Origin: Escherichia phage OSYSP
Sequence record: MF402939
Strand: one strand, 5' to 3'
DNA length: 64,000 nt
Shown: positions 1,373 to 51,455 of the stretch, in pieces
How positions within the stretch are numbered: position 1 is the stretch's first letter
How the letters are laid out: each line of letters opens with the position of its first letter
The notes under the pieces: model-generated
What the model was told of the DNA's origin: nothing
Seen by the model: only the letters and a program-made list of their open reading frames with translations
Database searches by the model: none
Position numbers and translations under genes: made by a program

Positions 1373-2138
1373 GTCTTGGGGCGAAACTACTGGCGGTTCT
1401 AACGATAAAATCGAATTCCTGAAGTTCAACAACGGTATCACTCGTGTTCGTATCGTTTCTGGTGTTCTTCCACGTTATGTCTATTGGCTGACTAATAAAG
1501 AGGGTAGCGTAGCTCCTTTCGAATGTCTCCGTTTTAACCGTGACAAAGAGAGTTTTGTTCGTGGTAAAGCTGATCCGGTTCATGAGATGGGCTTCTTTGA
1601 GAAAGAGCTGGATAAAGATGGTAATCGCGTTCCGCTGAAACCGAAGAAAAACTATATCGCTTTTGTTATCGACCGTTCTGATAACAAACTGAAAGTAATG
1701 GAAGTCAAAGCTACTATTCTGAAAGGCATCCAGTCTATCATGAAGCAGTTGAATCTGGCAACTCCGTTTGATATTGATATTTCTATCGAGAAAAAAGGTA
1801 AAGGTTTCGATACTGAGTATGATGTACAGCAGATTGCTGCTATGCAGTTCCAGATTAAGCTGCAAGATCCTAACAGTGCAGAATCTAAGCAATATGCTGC
1901 GGATGTAGATCTGATTGGTGAAGCTATGTGTGACGAAGATGGCGACATCATTAAGTTCGAAAAAGTTCCTTCTCTGGAACAAACTTATCCGGTTCCTACC
2001 TATGAAGAGCAGAAAGAAGCAATTCAAGCCTTCATGGAAGGTCGTGAGAATAAAGATGATGATGCCAAGTCTGGTAACAGCACTGCTGGTTCCCAGAAAG
2101 GTATTGATCACGAAGCTGCAAGCGATCTGGATGACTAA
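1365..2138 (+). CDS. Replication-module protein of uncertain function with acidic C-terminal tail (possibly DNA-binding)
   Basis: Strong RBS AAAGAGGAAAT; driven by tandem strong promoters and followed by an intrinsic terminator; ends in DLDD; position corresponds to T5 D11 region. Confidence 0.6.
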   Translation: MAKSWGETTGGSNDKIEFLKFNNGITRVRIVSGVLPRYVYWLTNKEGSVAPFECLRFNRDKESFVRGKADPVHEMGFFEKELDKDGNRVPLKPKKNYIAFVIDRSDNKLKVMEVKATILKGIQSIMKQLNLATPFDIDISIEKKGKGFDTEYDVQQIAAMQFQIKLQDPNSAESKQYAADVDLIGEAMCDEDGDIIKFEKVPSLEQTYPVPTYEEQKEAIQAFMEGRENKDDDAKSGNSTAGSQKGIDHEAASDLDD

Positions 2139-2143
2139 TAAAT

Positions 2144-2169
2144 AGAGGGGCTTCGGCCCCTTTCTTTTT
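2144..2169 (+). terminator. Rho-independent terminator
   Basis: GC hairpin GAGGGGC-TTCG-GCCCCT followed by TTTCTTTTT. Confidence 0.7.
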
Positions 2170-2174
2170 AACCA

Positions 2175-3152
2175 ATGAGAATATTATTTAGTGCTGATCA
2201 TCATATCAAACTAGGACAGGATAAAGTTCCAAAGGAATGGCAGAAGCGTCGCTTCCTGATGCTAGGAGAACGGTTAAATGATATATTCCATAATCATAAC
2301 TGTGATCTTCATATTGCTGGTGGTGATATACTTGATGTTGCCGACCCGTCGTCAGAAGAAATAGAACTGCTTGAACAGTTCATGTCAAGACTTGACCATC
2401 CAGGCAAAATCTTTACTGGAAATCATGAAATGTTAACTAAAACCATTTCGTGTCTATATCATTATGCGGGGGTTATTAATAAAGTAACTAGTGGGAAGTG
2501 GGAAGTAATTACCAAACCATATCGTTCCCCTGAATTTGATATTGTTCCGTATGATGAAATCCATAAGTCTAAGTGGAAACCATCTGAATCAAAACTATGT
2601 TTCACGCATGTTCGTGGTGAAATCCCTCCACATGTAAAACCAGAAATTGATCTAACTAAGTACAACTGTTATGATACTGTAATTGCTGGCGATTTACATT
2701 CTTATACTAATAGCCAGACTATCGGATCTACTAGACTCCTCTACCCAGGGTCTCCATTAACTACATCGTTCCATAGAGAACGCACAAAAGGTACAAATGG
2801 TTGCTTTATCATTGATACCGACACATTAAAAGTAGAATGGATTGAACTAGGTGATTTACCACAACTGATCCGTAAAACAATCGGAGCAGGTGAAGAGATG
2901 GAACCTAGTGATTATGATCGTGTAGTCTACGAAGTTACTGGTGACGTTGTTCAATTAAAGTCTATCAAAGACTCTGATTTATTAGATAAGAAGATTAACC
3001 ATCGAGTTACTAAAGATGCTAAGTTAAATCTTGTTGATCTTGATATGTTGGGCGAACTTGAACTTTACTTCCGTGAAGTCGAGAAGCTATCTCAAGGCGA
3101 CATTGATAGAATCTTGGCTAGAGCTGCGAAATATGTCAAAGATTACAATTAA
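2175..3152 (+). CDS. SbcD/Mre11-like metallophosphoesterase nuclease
   Basis: Calcineurin-like motifs ADHH, GGDILD, GNHE, GDLHS; overlaps and precedes a Rad50-like ATPase. Confidence 0.85.
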   Translation: MRILFSADHHIKLGQDKVPKEWQKRRFLMLGERLNDIFHNHNCDLHIAGGDILDVADPSSEEIELLEQFMSRLDHPGKIFTGNHEMLTKTISCLYHYAGVINKVTSGKWEVITKPYRSPEFDIVPYDEIHKSKWKPSESKLCFTHVRGEIPPHVKPEIDLTKYNCYDTVIAGDLHSYTNSQTIGSTRLLYPGSPLTTSFHRERTKGTNGCFIIDTDTLKVEWIELGDLPQLIRKTIGAGEEMEPSDYDRVVYEVTGDVVQLKSIKDSDLLDKKINHRVTKDAKLNLVDLDMLGELELYFREVEKLSQGDIDRILARAAKYVKDYN

Positions 3153-4971
3153 GACACTAAAATTTAGTAACGTTATGTCTTACGGTAAGGACATCGTAAT
3201 TCATTTCGATAAGAATCCAGTTACTCAACTAATCGGTGGCAATGGGCTAGGGAAATCTACTATCGCCACGGTTATAGAAGAGCTGTTCTATAATAAGAAC
3301 TCACGTGGTATTAAGAAAGATGCTCTGTTCTCTTGGTCTTCTCCGAAAAAAGAGTATGATATGCACGCTTACTTCTCAAAAGATGAAGATGAGTATGAAT
3401 TGCATAAAGTAGTTAAATCAACTGCTAAGGTTACACTCATTAAGAATGGAGAAGATATTAGTGGGCATACGGCAACCCAAACATATAAGATGATTGAAGA
3501 AATTATGGGGGGTGACTTTCAAACATTCACCAAACTGATTTATCAATCAGTGGGTTCTAATCTAGACTTCCTAAAAGCAACAGATGCAACACGTAAGGCT
3601 TTTCTTGTTAACTTGTTCAATCAAGAGCAATACAAAGAAATGTCAGAAACTATTAAGGCTGACCGTAAAGAAATAGCAAATACCTTAAATAATTTGCAGG
3701 GCCAGATGGCTGTAATTACGAAAATCCTTAATGGAAAAAATAATCTAGGAACTTTGCAGGAACCTGTAGAGGTGCCGGAGTTTGATGAAGAGCCATTAGC
3801 ACAAGAACTTACTGAATCGAAAATTAAGGCGGCATTAGCCAAGTCTCAAGAGGCTAATATTACTAAGTTGCGTAATTTGGACAAAGCTGTACAAGTTGCC
3901 GAACAATCTTTCGAACCTTTCAAAAATTTGCCCGCGCCCACCGACCAAAGTGAAGAGATCTCGAGTGTTACGCGTGACCTAACGATTGTGACCTCACGTG
4001 CGAGCGAAGTTAAGAAACGTTATCAGAAGTTCAAGCAAGAGGCTTCAAATACTGAATGCCCTACTTGCGGTACTCATCTGGATACAACTGCTGCCCAAAA
4101 AGCAATGGATATGGCTAGAACAGAATATGATCCTCTGTTCAAAGAGAAGCAATCTCTTGAAGCTAAGCTAGAACAGTTGAAGAAAGAACAACTTGAGTAC
4201 GTTGCGTATACTAGAGCAAAGGATGCTTTGGATAAAGCGGTGGTAGCTAGAGACGAGTTCAAAAATTCAATGAGTGATGCTTCTTTTGAAGAACTCAATG
4301 TGCAAATCCTACAGGTGCAAATCCGACAATTAGAACAGGAAATCGCTGATGGCCGCTCTAAGGTTGCAATTGCCAAAGAGCATAATGCAAATGTCGAATT
4401 AGCCAACGCAAAATATAAAGCGAAACTAGAACAGATTGAGAAAGCTGAAGCAGAAATGTCTGAGATTACTTCCAAACTTGATGGAGTAGCCGAAGCTGTA
4501 GCTGATCTTGATATTCTAATTGCTGCTTTGAAAAATCTGGTGGGATATAAACTAGAGCATAGTGTGAAAGTATTCGAAGAATTAATTAATAAATACCTTT
4601 CTATTATGACTGGAGGTAAATTCGCACTTGGATTTGAACTTGATGAAACGAAGTTACAAGTAGTAATCTTCAATGATGGAAATCGTACCAGTATGGAGAA
4701 CTGCTCTACTGGTCAGCAAAGTAGAATTAATCTAGCAACCCTGTTAGCTATTCGTATGCTGTTAACATCTATTAGTAAAGTTAATATTAATCTTCTATTC
4801 CTTGATGAAGTAATTAGCTTTATTGATACGAAAGGACTTGATACTCTCGTTGAACTATTAAATGAGGAAGAAAGTCTAAATTCTATCATTGTTTCTCATG
4901 GGCATACGCATCCATTAGCTCATAAGATTACTGTCAAAAAAGATGCAGAAGGATTTTCCTACTTAGAATAA
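3133..4971 (+). CDS. SbcC/Rad50-like ATPase with coiled coil and zinc hook
   Basis: Start taken at MSKITIK (ATG 3133) rather than the track ATG at 3031; Walker A GGNGLGKST, CPTC hook motif in a long coiled-coil region, signature-like STGQQS, Walker B LLFLDEV. Confidence 0.85.
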   Translation: MSKITIKTLKFSNVMSYGKDIVIHFDKNPVTQLIGGNGLGKSTIATVIEELFYNKNSRGIKKDALFSWSSPKKEYDMHAYFSKDEDEYELHKVVKSTAKVTLIKNGEDISGHTATQTYKMIEEIMGGDFQTFTKLIYQSVGSNLDFLKATDATRKAFLVNLFNQEQYKEMSETIKADRKEIANTLNNLQGQMAVITKILNGKNNLGTLQEPVEVPEFDEEPLAQELTESKIKAALAKSQEANITKLRNLDKAVQVAEQSFEPFKNLPAPTDQSEEISSVTRDLTIVTSRASEVKKRYQKFKQEASNTECPTCGTHLDTTAAQKAMDMARTEYDPLFKEKQSLEAKLEQLKKEQLEYVAYTRAKDALDKAVVARDEFKNSMSDASFEELNVQILQVQIRQLEQEIADGRSKVAIAKEHNANVELANAKYKAKLEQIEKAEAEMSEITSKLDGVAEAVADLDILIAALKNLVGYKLEHSVKVFEELINKYLSIMTGGKFALGFELDETKLQVVIFNDGNRTSMENCSTGQQSRINLATLLAIRMLLTSISKVNINLLFLDEVISFIDTKGLDTLVELLNEEESLNSIIVSHGHTHPLAHKITVKKDAEGFSYLE

Positions 4972-7052: not shown

Positions 7053-9962
7053 TTATGAGTTATCTGGCTTAATGAGCTCACTCACAAGTTTTTTCAGTTC
7101 GGTTAATTCTTGCTCAAGTTTGTTAACTTTATCAGCTTGATAACGAAATGCACAAGCTAAATCCGCCATAATTACGTTATTATCAAGAGCTAATGTATCG
7201 TCCGCTTTATCAACAACAATTTGACGGTCTACATATTCTTCACCTTCTTCATTAACACCTATAACATCTGCAAAAATATCCCCGCCAGGAATTAATTTTA
7301 CATATTCCGGGTCTATTTTTAGTAGGTCTTGGGCTATTAAACCAAATCGCTGGATGTTGCTTCCATTGTATTTAAACATTGTAGGCAGCCACTGCATAAC
7401 GCGATCATAGCTTTCTTTTCCATCTGTATAAATTATATCATGCTTTAAATCTCTGTCAGAGTTGGCGGCCTTTTGAAAAATGAAATTTCCACTTGATGAC
7501 CATGTAGTTATATCGTTTGATGCTGGCTGAAACTGGAAGTTACAGAAAAAATTGCCATCACCACGAAGCCTTAACGAGCAAAAAGGCCAAGCATTATTTC
7601 CCTGTGGGATAAGACCCCAAGTTGCACGAATTGGATAACCACCAGTTGATTGTGTACCCCATGAAAGTCCAGGCGCCCATCCACCATCATTGTTAGGAAT
7701 AATCTCGCCCCAAACAAGAGCATTACCCCAATAGTTAGGATCATCCCAGCCCATTTGTTGGGTTTTGCCAGTGTATTGGGCGGAATGAGTTCTGCCGTCA
7801 GGGTAAAACTTGTGCATATAGGCCTGTATCCCTGCTTGATACAATTCTATTCCAAAAGATTCAATGTGTGTGTCGCCTCTTCTGATTAAACCAGCGATAG
7901 CGTAATCGTCATACCAATTGTAACGACTTACACCAGTCCATGTGTTTATGGGTGGATTCATGGTTGAAAATAGTTGTGACGCATTGCGTTCATTCCCGTC
8001 TGCATAAATACCAGCCCCCGGAGCTAATGAGATTGATTTTGCTCCTGAAAAAGTACCATTTTCATTAAATTGATAATAGTGAAACAAGTTATTATGAAAC
8101 ACACCTATTGTATGTTTTCCTACGCCTACTTGAGTTTCGAAATAAGACTGAGAAGAACCAATATCCTCGCCTTGTGTGTTCTTTAATTTTGAATGGTATA
8201 TACCTGCGTTTGCAGTATTTGCATTTTCCGTTTCATTTTCAACATTAAGGCTTAGAAATTTTGGTGCATGTTTTTCGCCAAGTCCTATATTGTTTCTAAT
8301 ACCATTCGCATCCTTAGCACCCGTACCACCAAATTGAATACCTAGTGGTAGCCATTGATTGGTTGTAGCATCATAAACGCCCCAATGATCCCCACCATCT
8401 GGAATGGTTAGATACTTGTTTTTATTTGGGGAATATAAAACTGTTTCACCAGAAGTCTGAAACAGCCTATCAACTCCTAAATTATATCTAGCACCTTCAA
8501 GTGTATCCGCTCCAGTACCACCAGCAATAATTGATAATGGAAGAGATTCCCATGAGATACCATCACCATTTATGTTTTTCTGGAGTACAATAAGCCCATC
8601 ATCTCGCATAACAAATCTATATAATCTATTATGCGAGTATAAAAAAGTATGAACCCCATCCTGCACAAGTGAGTCTATAAGGAGCGTCTGACGAGAAGCA
8701 TTAATATCCGACAGATCTGAAAGATTATTTTCTTTTAGTAACGATTTACCAATAATACCTTCAGCTTTTCCAGCAGCCACTTCTGCACGTCCAGCGTCGG
8801 TAGATGCGCTTTGTGCGCTACTAGCAGCATTACTAGCTTGTTGCCCGGCCTCAACAGCACTGTTACCCGCTTGTGTAGCGGAAATAGCAGCGGCGTCTTT
8901 TAGCACGGTAGTTTCGGACACAGCGGCATCCTTAATTGCTTGCGTCTCGCTTACTGCACTATCCTTAATAGTCTGTGTGTCAGACTTTAATTTTTCAACA
9001 TCTGCTTTTAAAGCTGTTGTTTCACCTACAGCGGCATCCTTAATTGCTTGCGTCTCGCTTACTGCACTATCCTTAATAGTCTGTGTGTCAGACTTTAATT
9101 TTTCAACATCTGCTTTTAAAGCTGTTGTTTCACCTACAGCGCTATCTTTAATTAGTTGAGTATCTGATTTTAGTTGCTCAACATCTGATTTTAAGCCTTG
9201 AATAGTGGTTACTGACTGACTAGCTGAGGTTGCAGAACTAGCTGCGTTAGTCTCACTATCTTTGGCTTTAGTCTCACTAGTTTTAGCATTTGTTTCACTA
9301 GTTTTAGCATTTGTTTCAGAGGTTTTTGCAGCAGACGCTGATGTAGCAGCTTGTGTAGAGAATGTTTCCGCCTCATTCCTAAAACCACTGGAATCCGCAG
9401 CGGAAGCGGCAGCATTAGTCTCACTGATTTTTGCTTTATCTTCACTAATTTTTGCAACAGCAGCAGATGCAGCAGCATTAGTCTCACTGATTTTTGCTTT
9501 ATCTTCACTAGCCTTTGCATTAATTTCGCTAGTTTTAGCTTTATCTTCACTAGCCTTTGCATTAATTTCGCTAGTTTTAGCTTTATCTTCACTAGTCTTT
9601 GCATTAGTTTCGGATATTTTAGCTGCTGCAGCGGATTCTGCAGACTTATTGGCTGACGTTGCGGACTGAGTAGCAGAAGTAGCTGATTGGGTAGCCGATG
9701 CTTCAGAAGCTTCCGCGGAAATCGCAGCTTCCTGTTCAGAATTCTTAGCATTAAGCTCTGAAGTCTTAGCAGCTATTTCAGAATCTTTTGCAGCCGCAGC
9801 AGATTTAGCAGTGGCCTCTATAGAAGATACTAACTCATTAGCAGTAATAGAGCTAATAGAATTTCCAAGAGTTACTGTGTATCTAGGAAATTTACTAGCA
9901 GTAGCTTTAGTATCATCAATATTTAATATTTGTTGTACAATAATCTTAGTAGTTATTGCCAT
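7053..9962 (-). CDS. L-shaped tail fibre protein (pb1-like) with C-terminal intramolecular chaperone domain
   Basis: 969 aa; Ala/Ser/Thr/Lys-rich repeat region encoded by tandem DNA repeats; C-terminal segment resembles autocleaving chaperone domains of fibre proteins; first gene of late module as in T5. Confidence 0.75.
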   Translation of the reverse strand: MAITTKIIVQQILNIDDTKATASKFPRYTVTLGNSISSITANELVSSIEATAKSAAAAKDSEIAAKTSELNAKNSEQEAAISAEASEASATQSATSATQSATSANKSAESAAAAKISETNAKTSEDKAKTSEINAKASEDKAKTSEINAKASEDKAKISETNAAASAAVAKISEDKAKISETNAAASAADSSGFRNEAETFSTQAATSASAAKTSETNAKTSETNAKTSETKAKDSETNAASSATSASQSVTTIQGLKSDVEQLKSDTQLIKDSAVGETTALKADVEKLKSDTQTIKDSAVSETQAIKDAAVGETTALKADVEKLKSDTQTIKDSAVSETQAIKDAAVSETTVLKDAAAISATQAGNSAVEAGQQASNAASSAQSASTDAGRAEVAAGKAEGIIGKSLLKENNLSDLSDINASRQTLLIDSLVQDGVHTFLYSHNRLYRFVMRDDGLIVLQKNINGDGISWESLPLSIIAGGTGADTLEGARYNLGVDRLFQTSGETVLYSPNKNKYLTIPDGGDHWGVYDATTNQWLPLGIQFGGTGAKDANGIRNNIGLGEKHAPKFLSLNVENETENANTANAGIYHSKLKNTQGEDIGSSQSYFETQVGVGKHTIGVFHNNLFHYYQFNENGTFSGAKSISLAPGAGIYADGNERNASQLFSTMNPPINTWTGVSRYNWYDDYAIAGLIRRGDTHIESFGIELYQAGIQAYMHKFYPDGRTHSAQYTGKTQQMGWDDPNYWGNALVWGEIIPNNDGGWAPGLSWGTQSTGGYPIRATWGLIPQGNNAWPFCSLRLRGDGNFFCNFQFQPASNDITTWSSSGNFIFQKAANSDRDLKHDIIYTDGKESYDRVMQWLPTMFKYNGSNIQRFGLIAQDLLKIDPEYVKLIPGGDIFADVIGVNEEGEEYVDRQIVVDKADDTLALDNNVIMADLACAFRYQADKVNKLEQELTELKKLVSELIKPDNS

Positions 9963-10384
9963 TATCTAGTTACCCCATCACTGATAAATACTTTACCCTC
10001 CATTATACGAAAAGAACTAATAGCTGATCCTATGACGTCTCGTGTCATAATTATATCATAGTATCCTGCAAAACGTTGGCGAGGGTTATACTTATCTCTC
10101 TCTTTGGTAGCTTTTTCGCCAATATTATCTACTGCCTCTACAGGTAAACTTATAGCTATAGCACCTTGAGCAGCATCAGTAATTTTAGTAGTAAAAGATG
10201 CCAAAGTTTCCGCATTCTCATCAAGCCCGGCCTTTATAGTACCCCTTAGGGAATACCCTGTTAAGTTAACAGGGGTATTTGTAGGTGGATAAGTACTATC
10301 ATCAACATCTAAGAATTGCATCATTAGACCATAAGGTACTTTCTCATCTATCACTAAGTCTATAACTCTATTTTCAGTACTCAT
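9962..10384 (-). CDS. Tail collar-like protein (T5 p132-like)
   Basis: 140 aa, same length and position as T5 p132. Confidence 0.55.
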
Positions 10385-35561: not shown

Positions 35562-37226
35562 TTACGCGAAAAATTTACCGTTTTTAAAGTCGATCAAAGT
35601 GCGCTGACCGTTTGCATAGGTAATAACATGCGTTTGCGTCCAGCTTGACGCGCCAACGTTGTAACCCATGTCCAGACTACCAGCTACGCCAGCGGTATAT
35701 ACCCCGCCGTAAATGCTTGCCGTATGAGTATGCCCCGTGTTTAATTTGCCCAATTTCTTAAACTGTTTAGGATTGCCACGGCTGCCGTTAATGCCATTGT
35801 GACCGTGTACGCCGCACTCGATGCCTGCAATTTTAAATGATTGGTCAGTTGTTAGGAAAATGGCGTTAAATTCACAACCTGCAACCTTACGCAGCGCATA
35901 ATCAAGCACGTTGAAAGTATCGTCATGATCACCGATTGCCGCGTAAATTGCAGCATTTAGGCGGTGATATAGTTCCGCGTTTGCGGGATCGTCTTTAATG
36001 TTAGCATTACGATCATCAAGCCAACGGGATAGCGCTAAATCGTGGTTTGATTCCACGATGATTGTTTGAGAAAAATCGCGCTCCATTGACTCCAGCACGC
36101 GCCCCGTATCGATGAGATCATCCAGAACCTTATCACGTCCGGCGGCGTATTGTTTTGCTAGGAATACACCCGAAGCGCGGTTGTGATGGTTGCGGGATGT
36201 AAAATCATGCACGTCATGAATAAACTGATATTTAGGCTTGAGAATATCAAGCAAGCTATTTTCGCCAGCCCATGACGCAACGGCGCAATCGTCATCTAAT
36301 TTTTCGGCGTGAATATCGCCATATTGCAAGCCTAAAACATGCCCCGATGTTTCATAACATCCGGCGGGAGTGGCGCAAATATTCAAATCGTAAAACACGC
36401 CGCTTTCGTCCATCGTTTCAAGCTGGCGAACAAAAAATTCTCCGTCTTCGTCAAACTCAACAACAAGCGCACCGAAATTATGCAGCGCCTCGGCCTTTTG
36501 TCCTGCTTTCTGCTGGATGTAATTTTTTAGGGTTGCCGTTCCAGTTGAATACATACGACGCACTACTTCACCTTTTAAAGCTGGCACGCTTTCGGCGGTA
36601 ATTTTAGCGTGACCAATTGCCAGACCTTCCAGATTAAGCGCCGTTGCAGTTTCAGCGAATCCAGAAAGCGGATAATCTGCGGTTGGCAAAACGTTAATTT
36701 CAGCCATGAAAGCAAAACGGCGGTTATTTAAAAACACGTTTTTATTGCAGATATATTTGTCAAATGCGGAATCATATTTTATTCCTTCTGCACCCTCGCC
36801 ATTTTGAAAACCGTTTTTGTTATAAATAAACTTGCTAACCAGCAAATCAGCGCCGATATATTTAGCAAATTGCTCCAGTGAGGCTAAAAAGTTTTTATGC
36901 GGGAAAGTATTATTCTGAATCGACGTAATAATAAAGCGTTTACCCTGCTTTACTTCCCATTGCTCAACCGTGCTAGAAACAATCCCCGCCGCTTCTGGAC
37001 GCTCATCGTTTTTAATGGCTTTTGCTACTTTCGCCGCTTTCGGTTTAGCTGGTTTATTTGCTTCCAACCAGTCGCAGATAGCGGTCGAGTGTTTTGTTGT
37101 ATCGTAGACCGCTTTTGATATATCGTCGCAGACCTCCAGTTTAGTAGCGCGCAGACGTTTACCATAGAAATTAAAGTCAGCGGCCATTTTCAGGATAACG
37201 GTTTGTTTTTCTGCGGAAATAATCAT
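35562..37226 (-). CDS. A1: A1-like pre-early protein with metallophosphoesterase motifs
   Basis: 554 aa (T5 A1 about 556); calcineurin-like motifs GDIH, HDVHD, ESNHD, GHTH; sits beside an A2-like gene. Confidence 0.75.
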   Translation of the reverse strand: MIISAEKQTVILKMAADFNFYGKRLRATKLEVCDDISKAVYDTTKHSTAICDWLEANKPAKPKAAKVAKAIKNDERPEAAGIVSSTVEQWEVKQGKRFIITSIQNNTFPHKNFLASLEQFAKYIGADLLVSKFIYNKNGFQNGEGAEGIKYDSAFDKYICNKNVFLNNRRFAFMAEINVLPTADYPLSGFAETATALNLEGLAIGHAKITAESVPALKGEVVRRMYSTGTATLKNYIQQKAGQKAEALHNFGALVVEFDEDGEFFVRQLETMDESGVFYDLNICATPAGCYETSGHVLGLQYGDIHAEKLDDDCAVASWAGENSLLDILKPKYQFIHDVHDFTSRNHHNRASGVFLAKQYAAGRDKVLDDLIDTGRVLESMERDFSQTIIVESNHDLALSRWLDDRNANIKDDPANAELYHRLNAAIYAAIGDHDDTFNVLDYALRKVAGCEFNAIFLTTDQSFKIAGIECGVHGHNGINGSRGNPKQFKKLGKLNTGHTHTASIYGGVYTAGVAGSLDMGYNVGASSWTQTHVITYANGQRTLIDFKNGKFFA

Positions 37227-38395: not shown

Positions 38396-39223
38396 TAAGC
38401 AACAATCCGCTCACCGCTATAATCAATTTAAAGAACTCCATGCAGGCCGCTATATCCCAGTTAGGGGGCGGGACACATTATGGTAAGTGCCGACCGTCAG
38501 ATTTTATCAAGTTATCGCTCTTATCGAACTGAGTACATCTTAAAGCCTATCGGCTAGGTTGTCAAACAATTTTTTGCAGTTTTTTATAATTCTCTTTCAA
38601 GTCAATCATAATATTTCGCCAGATCATTTCTAAACCTTGCTGGCGGCCTTTCTTGTACTGCGTGAATCGGTATTTTACCGATCTTTGCGCTACTGTCAAC
38701 AAATTTTTTGTTTTGCTGTCCAGTGCCTTGCTAGGTTTACCAGTGATCAATAAAGTTTGTTTCATATCTGCGATTCCTTATAATGTATAAGTTTACCGCC
38801 GATAGACTTTAAGATGTACCCAATTTTTAAAGAGCGCGGCGGTAAACTTCCCGCCGTGTAGTTCGTCATTGCCGCCCTACGAGATAAATAATAAGGGATT
38901 CACAAAAATGGCGCAACCTTATTTTTGTAAAGAAACGTAAAGACAAATGCCACCGGACACCGTGCGGCGACCTGGGCGCGACGCACTAAAATTAAAAGAA
39001 ACGGGCGCGCGAATACCACAAAACATAGCAGATAGGCAAGTAATTTTTTCATTTATATTTGCTTTGCCCTACTTGACAAAATCTAAAAAACTCGTGGTAG
39101 CGATAAACGAGGGTAGGCAATGCAATGGCATGGCTAAAAACTTCATCGCGTTCTAGGGCGTTTTAGGCGCATTCTAGCCTTGTTGATAACTTATCCCCAG
39201 AAGCAAAAATGAAATTTTCCTAG

Positions 39224-39633
39224 TTATCCACTTGACTTTTATTTTCCAGTGGATAACTACTTATTTTATAAAATAAATTAATTGACTTTTATTTGTTAGT
39301 ATGCGTCGGAAAGATAGCAGACTAATAATTGCTAGGATGATAATCATGCTGGTGGATTGTAACGGCTTAAATTATTAGCAGACTATTAATCACGGAAAAT
39401 CTCATTAGCCAACTAACTATTTCATGATATATAATATACTTATAAATTAAGGAGAAATAATAATTATAAGAAATAATAGCTACAGTAAATATTAACTATA
39501 AGAAACTATCGGCCTAAGTGAGAACCACTATCATTTAAGTTATCCACAACGTTATCCACAGCACAAAATGATTTGACATAATAGGCGGTGATATAAGGAC
39601 TTTTACACAGACTTATCCACAGCTTATCCTACT
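39224..39633. promoter_or_regulatory. Divergent control region with DnaA boxes: inverted pair TTATCCACT/AGTGGATAA (39224-39256), palindrome TTATTTTATAAAATAA, perfect TTATCCACA boxes at 39540, 39552 and 39613
   Basis: Exact matches to the E. coli DnaA box consensus TTATCCACA read directly; duplicated TTGACTTTTATTT on both sides of the palindrome. Confidence 0.6.
39405..39435 (+). promoter_or_regulatory. Candidate promoter for the rightward pre-early operon
   Basis: TATAAT at 39430-39435 followed by ACTTATAAATTAAGGAGA, resembling the other early promoters; -35 is weak. Confidence 0.35.
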
Positions 39634-39914
39634 GTATAAATATACAAGGTAAAAAGGTAGTGTTAACAACTGCAATCAATTTTAAGCGGCCTAAAACGCT
39701 TTCTAACGAGCTAAATGCGGTGGGGTAATATTAAAGTAAAGTCTTCACCCGTCGCCCTGGTGGCTTCACTGTGTTTTGCTCTTTATTGCACCGCTGCGCG
39801 GTTAGCATAAAACTAGGCGCTAGGCAAGGAAAATAAAAAGGTAAAATAATATTTGCCCCTAGAAAGAAAATACCTTTATCATTCACTCACCGATTAACGA
39901 GGGAGGCCGAACAA

Positions 39915-40907
39915 ATGAGGCTTTATAAACCAGATAACGCAACCGTCTTAAAAGGTGCATTGCGCAACCTGCTGGATGGTAGCAGAACAACCAGCATTAA
40001 ACATTTTGTTTTCAATATTGAAACACTTCATCGTAATTTTCTTGATGATTACGATGCTTATAATATGAATAGTTTTCTACCGTTATATAATCAAGGGGCA
40101 ACGCTTGTTTTATATAATCAGGAATCTCACTTGCTTACTAGTCGAGGGCCAGATACTGATTTTATTATAGTGAAAGGCAGTACAGTAAAAGCCTATGATG
40201 CGGGGGCGGGCTTAGAAGTTTTCACGATAGAAAATTATGAGCCTTATGATAAGGATCTTTATGACGTAGAAAATTTTCTCGATTCATTTTGGCGTTATTT
40301 ATCAATTGGGTGGAATCGATCAGATTATCACGGGTATCGTTTTGCGGCTATAATGGCTTTTGATGATAACGGTAATTTTTTGCTACCGTCGGAATTATAC
40401 CCGTATGTATATAATGATTTAATAGAGGAGGCTGGTTTTACTTTCTGGAAAGATGAAGATCAGCCTATTGACAACACGGAAAAACATGCTGTAAATTCTA
40501 ACACTCAAAGCGTTAACACTCAAACTACTGAAAATAAAGGGAAAAATACTATGACCAAGATCGCTAACATCGTTGCCGCTAATAAATCCGCTGTTGTAAA
40601 CGCTGCAAAACTGGAAGCGGGTAAAATTGCACTGACTCAAATCACGAAAGTAGCGGCTAAAAAACCGCCGTTTATTATCAAGGGTTATATTGATACGCCG
40701 ATTGGTCGGGTAGTGATTGCCAACCTGCTGAGTGTAGCGGTTGACCAGTACGCCCCGAGTAACCAGAAAGCGAAAGCGGTAGCAGGAGCGGCTATGGAAG
40801 CGGCAATGCTAGAAATGGTGCAAAGTTTTAACATCGCTGAAATGATCGATGAAATGGTAAAAGGTATCGATATTTCTACTTTCACCGTTAACAACGAAAG
40901 CGAGTAA
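39915..40907 (+). CDS. Hypothetical pre-early protein (330 aa), two-domain
   Basis: Strong RBS GAGGGAGG; N-terminal domain, Asn/Thr/Gln-rich linker, Ala/Lys-rich C-terminal domain; no family recognised. Confidence 0.6.
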   Translation: MRLYKPDNATVLKGALRNLLDGSRTTSIKHFVFNIETLHRNFLDDYDAYNMNSFLPLYNQGATLVLYNQESHLLTSRGPDTDFIIVKGSTVKAYDAGAGLEVFTIENYEPYDKDLYDVENFLDSFWRYLSIGWNRSDYHGYRFAAIMAFDDNGNFLLPSELYPYVYNDLIEEAGFTFWKDEDQPIDNTEKHAVNSNTQSVNTQTTENKGKNTMTKIANIVAANKSAVVNAAKLEAGKIALTQITKVAAKKPPFIIKGYIDTPIGRVVIANLLSVAVDQYAPSNQKAKAVAGAAMEAAMLEMVQSFNIAEMIDEMVKGIDISTFTVNNESE

Positions 40908-43113: not shown

Positions 43114-43128
43114 ACTGCGCCCGCGATG

Positions 43129-43187
43129 GTTAGCCTGCTAATGATTAGGGTGTTACGTGTCGCCTTGTGTGATCGTTAGCAGGCTAA
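43129..43187. repeat. 13-bp inverted repeat GTTAGCCTGCTAA / TTAGCAGGCTAAC with 33-bp spacer
   Basis: Read directly; could form a large hairpin. Confidence 0.6.
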
Positions 43188-43334
43188 CTAATTTTTAAGC
43201 CTCCTCCAATTTTGCCCTTGTTTTAGTACCCCCACCAAAATTAAACGCGTTAGAATGCGATCTAGGACGTTTTAGCGGTATACTAGAATTATTCACTACA
43301 TAGGAATACTGTATATTTATACAGTAGGATATCC

Positions 43335-43416
43335 TGTGGATAAGTCTGTTAATAACGCCTCAAAATGGCTAGGATTCTGTCAAATCAAATCGTGCTGTTA
43401 ATAAGTCTGTGGATAA
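43335..43416. promoter_or_regulatory. Two consensus DnaA boxes (TGTGGATAA) in repeated context CTGTTAATAAGTCTG
   Basis: Exact reverse-complement matches to TTATCCACA at 43335-43343 and 43408-43416. Confidence 0.55.
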
Positions 43417-43446
43417 CTTAAATAACAGTGTTTCTCACTTCCATTC

Positions 43447-43608
43447 TTAAATGAGAATCATTATCATTCGCAGTCCACTGTCTAACCGATAATCATTTCC
43501 TTTCTTAAATGAGAATCATTTCACTTTTTGAATAGTTCTCATTTCCTTTCTTAAATGAGAATAATTATCATTCGCATTCCACTTCTTAAATGATAATGAT
43601 TCTCATTC
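43447..43608. repeat. Five copies of 24-bp motif CTTAAATGAGAATCATTATCATTCG (one inverted), Fur-box-like
   Basis: Copies at 43447, 43504, 43550 and inverted at 43584, plus palindrome at 43091; core matches 15 of 19 positions of the E. coli Fur box GATAATGATAATCATTATC. Confidence 0.6.
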
Positions 43609-43637
43609 AAAGTCGCAGGGCAATTGCCCTGCGCTTT

Positions 43638-44239
43638 TGTGCAAATCCGACATTGCTCCACGGGTGTTACGTGCGGGCATGTATGTGCGAATCCGACAAT
43701 TTTTGGTAGTGTGCGAATCCGACCCTAAAAACTTTTGTGATGTGCGAATCCAACAATGAATTTTCCCAAAAACTCCAGCAATCACGAACTGCGTTCGAAT
43801 CCTGTGGGATATGTGCAAATCCGACACGGTTTTTCTAGGATTAAGATGTGCAAATCCGACAAGATTTTTGTGACTTCGATGAGAGGGTGTGTGATTGTAT
43901 AGGTTTGAGGAGAAGATGAGAGAGCGAGAAAAGTTTGGGAGGCTAGAAGGATGCGGGCGCAGGATTGGTGCGGAGCACCTGATTTGCGGGGATTTTGGGG
44001 AAGAGTTGAGATAATTTGGGAAGATTTGAGATAGGTGCAGAAAAAGTAAAATTTTATTAGCAAAATGGGGCAAAATAGCTTGACAAGTGAAAATTTCTGT
44101 GGCTCTAAAAACTCAGGCAATCATGGGCCTTCGGCCCGAAATAATGCTGCCATTTTCAAGAGATTATATGTTCCTAAAAACTTAGGCGTTTGTGCAAATC
44201 CGACCATAAATTTCTAGGAACACAATGTACAAATCCGAC
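43638..44239. repeat. Nine direct copies of 15-bp motif TGTGCRAATCCGACA
   Basis: Copies starting near 43638, 43684, 43711, 43741, 43812, 43847, 44190, 44225 and a degenerate one at 43785; motif has partial dyad symmetry. Confidence 0.65.
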
Positions 44240-44280
44240 AGTAATTTCTGGAAATGTGTTTTCAAAAAATGTCTCCTAGA

Positions 44281-44340
44281 AATAACCGCCCTCCCTATAA
44301 CCGCCCTGTATTAACCGCCCTGTATTAACCGCCTATTGCT
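44281..44340. repeat. Four tandem copies of about 14 bp AACCGCCCTNTATT
   Basis: ATAACCGCCCTCCCTATAACCGCCCTGTATTAACCGCCCTGTATTAACCGCCTATT read directly. Confidence 0.6.
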
Positions 44341-44761
44341 AGAGTTTCTAGGAATATGAAAACCGCCTGAGTTGACTAGAGAAACAGATTTAAAGTTTAA
44401 TGTAAACTCTAGAGTTAGTGCTCAACTATTCCTAGAAACTTAGGAGTCTAGAAGAAAGTGTTGTGCCATCCTAGCAGATGAGCGGCAACAGGTGTATCAT
44501 CTTGAACACAAATATTGCCTTTAAATATTTTTAGTTATTTAAAAGTAAATATACCCCCATTTCATGAGAGCTTACTCGTGGGGCGCGTGAGTATTACGGA
44601 AGACTTAGTAATTAGATCTATACTCGTGCTGTCGCAACGTATAGACGTAATACTAAGTGTAATAATCATCGCCCCTAGAGTTCAAAACAAGAGTTGTTTT
44701 TAATCTATGAGATTATTATAACATGTGCCGCAATGAGTTGTCAAGAAGATTTTGTTAATGT

Positions 44762-50861: not shown

Positions 50862-51455
50862 TTAGACATTTATATCGCCACGCAATACAGCAGCTACGTC
50901 TTCTCCTATTTGTAATACCTCGCCGGTAGTACAATTAACCACTCTATCGTAACTAGTAAACTTACCAGACACAATATCCTCTAGTGGAATTGGAGTTCTA
51001 CTCATTTCAAATGAGACATTAATATAACGTGGATCACGTAAAGAAGTAGTATGTACATGTCCGTGAATATTTAGTTTGCCACGAAGTTCATTAGGGTGCA
51101 AAGGGCAGTGAGATAGCCAAAACTTTTTGCCACCTCCAGTCTGTTTGCCTAGAGCTTGAATATCGTCATAAACTTCCGCTAAGTCCCTAATACTCAGTCC
51201 TTGACGCTCCGCATCATGATTACCCATAATGAGTTGATTAGGGACATTGTGGATAACCGACTTTAATTTGGCCAGACCTTCACGACCTACTGCAATATCT
51301 CCTAGCAAAATAAGTTTTGTTCGTTTACCAATATGCTTGGATAAAGTATTTAGAATATACTCATCGTGCTCTTTCATGTTCTTAAACCACGGACGGAAAC
51401 GTAGTGCTCCAGGGTGGTCTAAGTGCAAGTCTGACCAGAATTTAACCTTCATCAC
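50862..51455 (-). CDS. Calcineurin-like metallophosphoesterase
   Basis: Motifs SDLHLD, GDIAVGREG, GNHD, GHVH. Confidence 0.65.
   Translation of the reverse strand: MMKVKFWSDLHLDHPGALRFRPWFKNMKEHDEYILNTLSKHIGKRTKLILLGDIAVGREGLAKLKSVIHNVPNQLIMGNHDAERQGLSIRDLAEVYDDIQALGKQTGGGKKFWLSHCPLHPNELRGKLNIHGHVHTTSLRDPRYINVSFEMSRTPIPLEDIVSGKFTSYDRVVNCTTGEVLQIGEDVAAVLRGDINV

Follow-up and report, generated by a model that had tools for sequence, protein, structure and literature searches.

The 64,000-nucleotide stretch of Escherichia phage OSYSP DNA analyzed here (MF402939; hereafter the window) carries two 131-bp units, at 43310..43440 and 39516..39646, in which sites of the DnaA-box type stand in pairs. 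As the best explanation of their sequence and conservation, we consider it moderately likely that these units form a selected array of sites for host DnaA on the first-step-transfer DNA; the array would, more speculatively, be part of a cis-acting stop signal. Judged by sequence and position, the 43.3-kb element is almost certainly the IRD'-spacer-IRC' element of the T5 injection-stop region, inverted partner included. Because the published layout matches and the unit is 91.6% identical to its T5 counterpart (AY543070 9412-9542, over 131/131 positions), the box cluster is an already described feature, rediscovered in a new isolate. Here, we establish the identity, anatomy, box enrichment, and selective motif conservation of this element, and we describe an adjacent LexA-like operator, which on sequence grounds may be the sole new lead.

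A T5-like terminal repeat and its injection-stop region

A 1.2-kb query around the boxes matched 440 phage records, nearly all T5-like (Salmonella, Escherichia), with identities of up to ~92%, and several of these matches fall within the annotated "left terminal repeat" of relatives. A 24-kb query again returned T5-like phages, and its match covers A1, A2, dmp, and the receptor-binding protein. Since the gene order and coordinates of T5 (AY543070) map onto the window (T5 A1, 1706-3376, corresponds to window 35562-37226), we identify the window as DNA of a T5-like phage (Demerecviridae) with its ~10-kb terminal repeat collapsed mid-sequence. The same correspondence bears out the label "pre-early region" given in the initial annotation, and the synteny from dmp-A1-A2 through the rightward operon to the 131-bp unit is that of T5. 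Projected from T5 coordinates, the terminal repeat would have its left end at about 33857 and its inner end at about 44100; thus, the assembly is permuted and contains a single repeat copy. The GC skew switches sign near 32-34 kb of the window.

The 131-bp unit at 43310-43440 is free of ORFs, as the window's ORF list holds none of ≥40 aa across 43115-43602. An Rfam scan of 38.8-44.6 kb (E≤1) gave three sub-threshold chance hits and no known RNA family, and no Pfam domain was found in the window's A1 (35562-37226) or A2. Homologues of A1 (29-40% identity) also occur outside Demerecviridae, in Rhizobium, Rhodobacter, Caulobacter, Xanthomonas jumbo, Flavobacterium, and Cellulophaga phages.

In the T5 annotation (AY543070), positions 9140-10149 are the injection stop signal (iss), and the T5 homologue of the 43.3-kb unit lies inside it. 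Davison's 2020 preprint (bioRxiv 10.1101/866236) assigns the 131-bp IRD'-spacer-IRC' to Repeat Region 3 and IRC-spacer-IRD to Repeat Region 2, with an eight-box layout of DnaA and DnaA* boxes in pairs 3 bp apart; it credits the first DnaA box to the 1987 paper of Heusterspreute et al. With the T5 iss elements (Heusterspreute 1987; Wang et al. 2005; Davison), our element shares the position in the terminal repeat, the 131-bp length, and the inverted partner. It likewise has four 9-mers per unit in 3-bp pairs, a mix of consensus and DnaA* boxes, and DRC, DRE, and DRD neighbors. Box composition differs: this phage has five perfect boxes, one consensus box, and two DnaA* boxes, whereas each T5 repeat has three perfect boxes and one consensus box, with one box lost.

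Anatomy and enrichment of the paired DnaA boxes

The initial annotation had located TGTGGATAA, the complement of TTATCCACA, at 43335 and 43408, and both positions are exact: by sequence match, box a (43335..43343) and box d (43408..43416) are perfect TTATCCACA boxes on the minus strand. On the same strand between them are box b (43347..43355), 3 bp (GTC) from box a, and box c (43396..43404), which follows box b after 40 bp and is separated from box d by 3 bp (GTC). Both of these read TTATTAACA, a "DnaA*" box in which C6 is changed to A; boxes a and d fit TTATCCACA/TTWTNCACA, and boxes b and c are off this consensus at position 6. The two perfect boxes are helically phased (73 bp, ~7 turns).

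The boxes had also been described as embedded in a local repeat, and this stands in the form of a 23-nt unit present twice (43334-43356 and 43395-43417, 61 bp apart, 83% identical), each copy consisting of two head-to-tail 9-mers with a 3-bp spacer. The order of the 9-mers is TGTGGATAA-GTC-TGTTAATAA at 43335-43355 and TGTTAATAA-GTC-TGTGGATAA at 43396-43416, where TGTTAATAA is the complement of TTATTAACA. The string TTAATAAGTCTG, said to be repeated next to each box, did not hold up: it is exact only at 43398, with the order reversed at the other box, and we rejected it as a separate repeat element, as it is the junction of two 9-mers.

The second unit, 39516..39646, is an inverted 131-bp copy homologous to T5 IRC-spacer-IRD (AY543070 6098-6227) and lies between the divergent pre-early operons. 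The two units align as inverted repeats I1 (67 nt, 82%) and I2 (51 nt, 86%), and the 39.5-kb unit mirrors the box positions of the 43.3-kb unit with four plus-strand consensus boxes. These form the pairs TTATCCACA-ACG-TTATCCACA (39540..39560) and TTTTACACA-GAC-TTATCCACA (39601..39621); both members of the latter fit TTWTNCACA, and it was the relaxed TTWTNCACA scan that added TTTTACACA at 39601 to the cluster. Altogether, eight DnaA/DnaA* boxes stand in 3-bp-spaced pairs (43335/43347, 43396/43408, 39540/39552, and 39601/39613). As the arrays are on the minus strand at 43.3 kb and on the plus strand at 39.5 kb, they converge and thereby bracket the 3.7-kb rightward pre-early operon. The initial annotation had missed TTATTAACA as a second DnaA-type 9-mer, the inverted 131-bp arms, TTTTACACA at 39601, and the published T5 structure.

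Perfect TTATCCACA boxes occur six times in the 64-kb window against 0.78 expected, a count reached in 0/100 shuffles, and five of the six sit in the two 131-bp units. The claim that the pre-early region contains at least five perfect boxes, beyond chance, is upheld: five (39540, 39552, 39613, 43335, and 43408) fall inside 3.9 kb, where ~0.05 would be expected (Poisson P ~2e-9), with the qualification that the boxes cannot be treated as independent events, the units being inverted copies that are each internally duplicated. The initial annotation had named a like box density in the rest of the genome as its refutation, and the complete T5 genome shows the opposite: its six perfect boxes are confined to the terminal repeats (three per repeat), and the ~101 kb of unique DNA contain zero. 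The relaxed motif TTWTNCACA is unremarkable in the window overall (12 found vs 7.2 expected). We took the sixth perfect box of the window, at 51248, as chance, as it is isolated and inside a 197-aa ORF.

Other sequence features were observed in and beside the units. Mid-spacer, the hexamer TGTCAA (TTGACA on the other strand; 43380-43385 and 39571-39576) is invariant in 56/56 aligned T5-like units; its flanks vary among units, and inspection by eye found no good -10 partner. To the left of the 39.5-kb unit, 39181-39256 contains four further one-mismatch boxes. They make up a convergent TGTTGATAA-C-TTATCCCCA and a palindrome, AGTTATCCACT...AGTGGATAACT, with TTGACT after each.

Upstream of the 43.3-kb unit, a hairpin with a T-run (43129..43188, plus strand; I20, 17-nt arms, 94%) is the likely terminator of the rightward pre-early operon, and the T5 annotation has a terminator at the equivalent place. 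Directly after box d are AT-rich direct repeats of the TTCTTAAATGAGAATCATT type (43435..43610, plus strand; D1, with six copies, and D4; 70% A+T), which correspond to T5 "DRC/DRE." The remainder of the iss repeat field consists of direct repeats TGTGC(A/G)AATCCGAC (43633..44250, plus strand; families D2, D3, and D5), the "DRD" of T5. Between the AT-rich and the DRD repeats, at 43614-43640, stands a terminator-like, GC-rich hairpin, CGCAGGGCAATTGCCCTGCG then CTTTTG; it contains GCGC and lies at about the place of T5's annotated 7.9% single-strand interruption (consensus Pu-pGCGC). On the minus strand, four copies of the TGTGCAAATCCGAC ("DRD") repeats in 43633-44250 read as ATTTGCACA, which departs from TTWTNCACA at one position, and 9/9 sites within one mismatch of this motif in 43300-44300 are on the minus strand. 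By their sequence, the DRD-type repeats could be weak DnaA sites, or the likeness could be coincidental. A tandem array of TTTCGCACA occupies the corresponding stretch of Vibrio phage D254 (L044 6398-6453).

GATC is absent from 43260-44600 and from 39000-40253, compared to 3.2 per kb in the window. An oriC-type origin was rejected: the repeat field lacks GATC, and its AT-rich repeat is present without a 13-mer/GATC signature. A sigma-70 promoter scan found 22 sites vs 16.7 expected, which is not above shuffles, and only 9-10/12 matches over the units; with no strong match there and a count near that of shuffles, we claim no promoter/operator arrangement.

Conservation of the boxes and of a LexA-like palindrome

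To follow the boxes through relatives, both units were taken from 39 IMG/VR loci and T5, which gave 28 distinct sequences per unit. The unit at 43310-43440 is present at full length, with 89-97% identity, in 36 of the 39 loci. Box a is perfect in 16/28 distinct R3 sequences, the rest having TTATCCCCA, TTATTAACA, or TTATCAACA, and box d is perfect in 22/28. When the eight boxes are pooled (28+28 sequences), variability peaks at position 5 (H=0.87), which is the N of TTWTNCACA; position 3 swaps A and T only (the W), and positions 1, 2, 4, 8, and 9 hardly change. Position 6 (C/A) comes next after position 5 in variability; the Schaper-Messer consensus disallows A there, and in R3 the position-6 A type is the regular form of two boxes out of four. 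Boxes with the C6 to A change are off consensus and would therefore be weak DnaA sites at best. Across relatives, exact TTATCCACA is the commonest form at six of the eight box positions.

In close relatives, box and non-box columns of the 131 bp differ little (H 0.23 vs 0.26); with conservation so nearly uniform, the boxes are not the sole constrained part. Between the paralogous units, the spacer has diverged and the boxes have not (H 0.35 in box columns vs 0.52 elsewhere). More distant relatives were found via A1 (31-66% identical): Erwinia KEY, Proteus phage 1, and Vibrio D254, Achelous, and AG74. In each of the five, perfect TTATCCACA boxes cluster in non-coding pre-early DNA. Among them are 3-bp-spaced pairs, TGTGCATAA-GTC-TGTGGATAA in Achelous and GGTGGATAA-GGT-TGTGGATAA in both Achelous and AG74, and in the Vibrio phages the sequence between the boxes is unrelated to that of the window. 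In Shewanella phage 1/4, a non-Demerecviridae phage with an A1 homologue, no perfect box was found in 25 kb.

A constant host-consensus motif amid drifting surroundings appears best explained by a conserved host protein that reads the motif. We favor a host reader because the motif matches the consensus of a conserved host protein while the surroundings drift; DnaA itself is conserved across the hosts of these phages. A phage-encoded reader is less likely but conceivable, since the phage DNA-binding protein A2 stays 41% identical between the window and Vibrio phage Achelous. The Vibrio phages extend the known range of the box pairs, because Davison's set went no further than the Providencia/Proteus "type 4" phages.

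At the outer edge of the 43.3-kb unit, 8 bp from box a, is the palindrome TACTGTATATTTATACAGTA (43307..43326), which matches the LexA/SOS-box consensus at 19/20 positions. Scored as mismatch count against the textbook consensus TACTG(TA)5CAGTA, 43307-43326 has one mismatch and is the sole site in the window with ≤3, where 0 are expected. The left unit has a copy, TACTGTATAAATATACAAGG (39630..39649), 8 bp from the box at 39613; it is degraded in this phage, and CTGT-N8-ACAG is kept at this place in most relatives. The palindrome core CTGT-N8-ACAG is kept in all R3 copies of relatives, two of them with CCAG, which is the commonest natural LexA operator variant. The start-to-start distance of 28 bp from palindrome to perfect box recurs in KEY (twice, mirrored), Achelous, and AG74, and in D254 and Proteus phage 1 the palindrome is close to the boxes. 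Its center (43313-43320) reads ATTT or AAAT in relatives, equivalent to reverse complementing the whole palindrome; this flip suggests a symmetric reader or hairpin-mediated flipping.

The composite CTGTATWWWTATACAG-N6-14-GTGGATAA was found in 40 stretches of IMG/VR (2.9 million viral contigs), and every contig concerned is 103-128 kb long. The 596 Gb of bacterial genomes gave a single 3-kb contig, RZZU01000077.1 ("MAG: Clostridia bacterium"), which is itself T5-like DNA; this contig matches window 39.3-43.7 kb at 80-90% identity, apart from internal deletions, and its presence in a Clostridia MAG is probably a binning contaminant. In both collections, these pattern searches placed the composite in T5-like DNA alone, and it is conserved family-wide.

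In its near-consensus CTGT-N8-ACAG and its 19/20 match to TACTG(TA)5CAGTA, the palindrome resembles the LexA operators of colicin plasmids, CTXphi, coliphage 186, and GIL01. Unlike these, it has no clear promoter overlap, occurs in a virulent phage, and keeps a constant 8-bp distance to a DnaA box. The one promoter-like match at the palindrome is weak (9/12, minus strand, 43315-43288). Because there is no clear promoter overlap, a putative LexA role would be architectural or that of a roadblock rather than classical repression. LexA and SOS are absent from Davison's preprint, and no link between LexA and T5-like phages was found in the literature searched.

Possible roles of the array in DNA transfer

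Read from left to right, the element comprises the LexA-like palindrome, 8 bp, [perfect box]-GTC-TTATTAACA, 40 bp, TTATTAACA-GTC-[perfect box], and the AT-rich repeats. Host DnaA would load on the first-step-transfer DNA during entry, with each perfect box nucleating the cooperative filling of its weaker neighbor, and the resulting complex of DNA and host protein (DnaA, perhaps LexA) would be part of the cis-acting stop signal. In Davison's proposal, membrane-bound DnaA retains the incoming DNA until A1 and A2 release it by cutting (bioRxiv 10.1101/866236); on that model, the complex would hold transfer at ~8% of the genome until release by A1 and A2. Binding of DnaA at the boxes of the units is likely, given their match to its consensus. 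A causal role of the boxes in the injection pause is speculative, and we judge it rather unlikely; the physical logic by which an intracellular complex would halt the entry of DNA that is still outside is weak. We also put forward, as an unlikely but arguable reading of the composite, that the injection-stop core is a landing pad for both host LexA and host DnaA, mirrored around the rightward pre-early operon and kept from Escherichia/Salmonella to Vibrio phages.

Alternatively, the 9-mers, the palindrome, or both could be operators for phage A2 or an A1-A2 complex, with the likeness to DnaA boxes a coincidence or mimicry. Protein and site may be co-conserved, as A2 is present and 41% identical even in the Vibrio relatives, and the frequent TTAT(C/T)AACA variants are off the DnaA consensus. 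According to Davison's preprint (bioRxiv 10.1101/866236), A1 and A2 must act in cis near the region for transfer to resume, which also fits. However, if the sites cause the stop, their function would be needed before any phage protein exists; the commonest form at most box positions is the exact host consensus, the changes tolerated at positions 3 and 5 follow DnaA degeneracy, and A1 and A2 offer no recognizable Pfam domain to back a specific-operator model. We consider this quite unlikely. The boxes could instead serve transcription, with DnaA (and LexA) forming roadblocks or insulators on either side of the rightward pre-early operon; these would separate pre-early from early units or modulate divergent promoters. 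The geometry agrees with such a role: one unit separates the divergent pre-early operons, the other is just past the rightward terminator hairpin, facing the leftward early genes, and the boxes of the two units are opposite and convergent. DnaA-box complexes do block transcription in an orientation-dependent manner. Yet no strong promoter overlaps the units (9-10/12 at best, with a count not above shuffles), and the large adjoining repeat field is left unexplained, which makes this role decidedly improbable.

A third possibility is that the region serves the terminal repeat as a DnaA-dependent element for replication or recombination, with a layout like that of plasmids. The origins of P1 (oriR), F (oriS), and pSC101 have DnaA boxes beside an AT-rich stretch and tandem direct repeats, and the boxes, 70% A+T repeats, and ~9 iteron-like TGTGCAAATCCGAC repeats of the window resemble them; unlike those origins, the phage has no Rep-type initiator gene alongside. 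With E. coli oriC, datA, and DARS, the units share several consensus 9-mers in fixed register and a strong box beside a weaker one. They differ in having no GATC cluster in either 43260-44600 or the 39.5-kb unit, a 3-bp pair spacing (oriC arrays have 2 bp between boxes), a location in a phage terminal repeat, and no sign of unwinding or origin function. Moreover, work cited in bioRxiv 10.1101/866236 maps the T5 origins near the genome center and has the replication genes silent during first-step transfer, so that a replication element here is very unlikely. Finally, the boxes might be passengers in a repeat selected for DNA structure (cruciform, bending, or pairing of the inverted units). The units are long inverted repeats and their entire 131 bp are highly conserved in close relatives, but the Vibrio phages retain the boxes and palindrome without the intervening sequence, and the spacer, not the boxes, has diverged between the two units of one genome; only a slight chance is left to this explanation.

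The host-DnaA array bears on a question that dates from the 1960s, namely how T5 transfer halts at 8% of the genome and then resumes. Two-step transfer has been verified for T5 and BF23 only (bioRxiv 10.1101/866236), a 2023 BF23 paper describes experimental studies as lacking, and a 2026 paper states that the second-step transfer mechanism "still remains poorly understood" (PMC13250531). Published clues to the T5 stop consist mainly of the DnaA boxes, to which one more T5-like genome adds little. What our analysis adds is that perfect boxes in T5 are confined to the terminal repeats, that paired boxes in Vibrio phages with diverged surroundings argue for a conserved host reader, and that a consensus LexA-type operator travels with the boxes at fixed spacing. 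The element thus offers a defined target of ~110 bp for questions of DnaA and LexA binding. Should both LexA and DnaA bind, a pause, anchor, or insulator would be built on the first-step-transfer DNA from two host proteins of the repressor/initiator kind, both abundant and conserved, and if the composite reading is true, second-step transfer might be coupled to the SOS state of the host.
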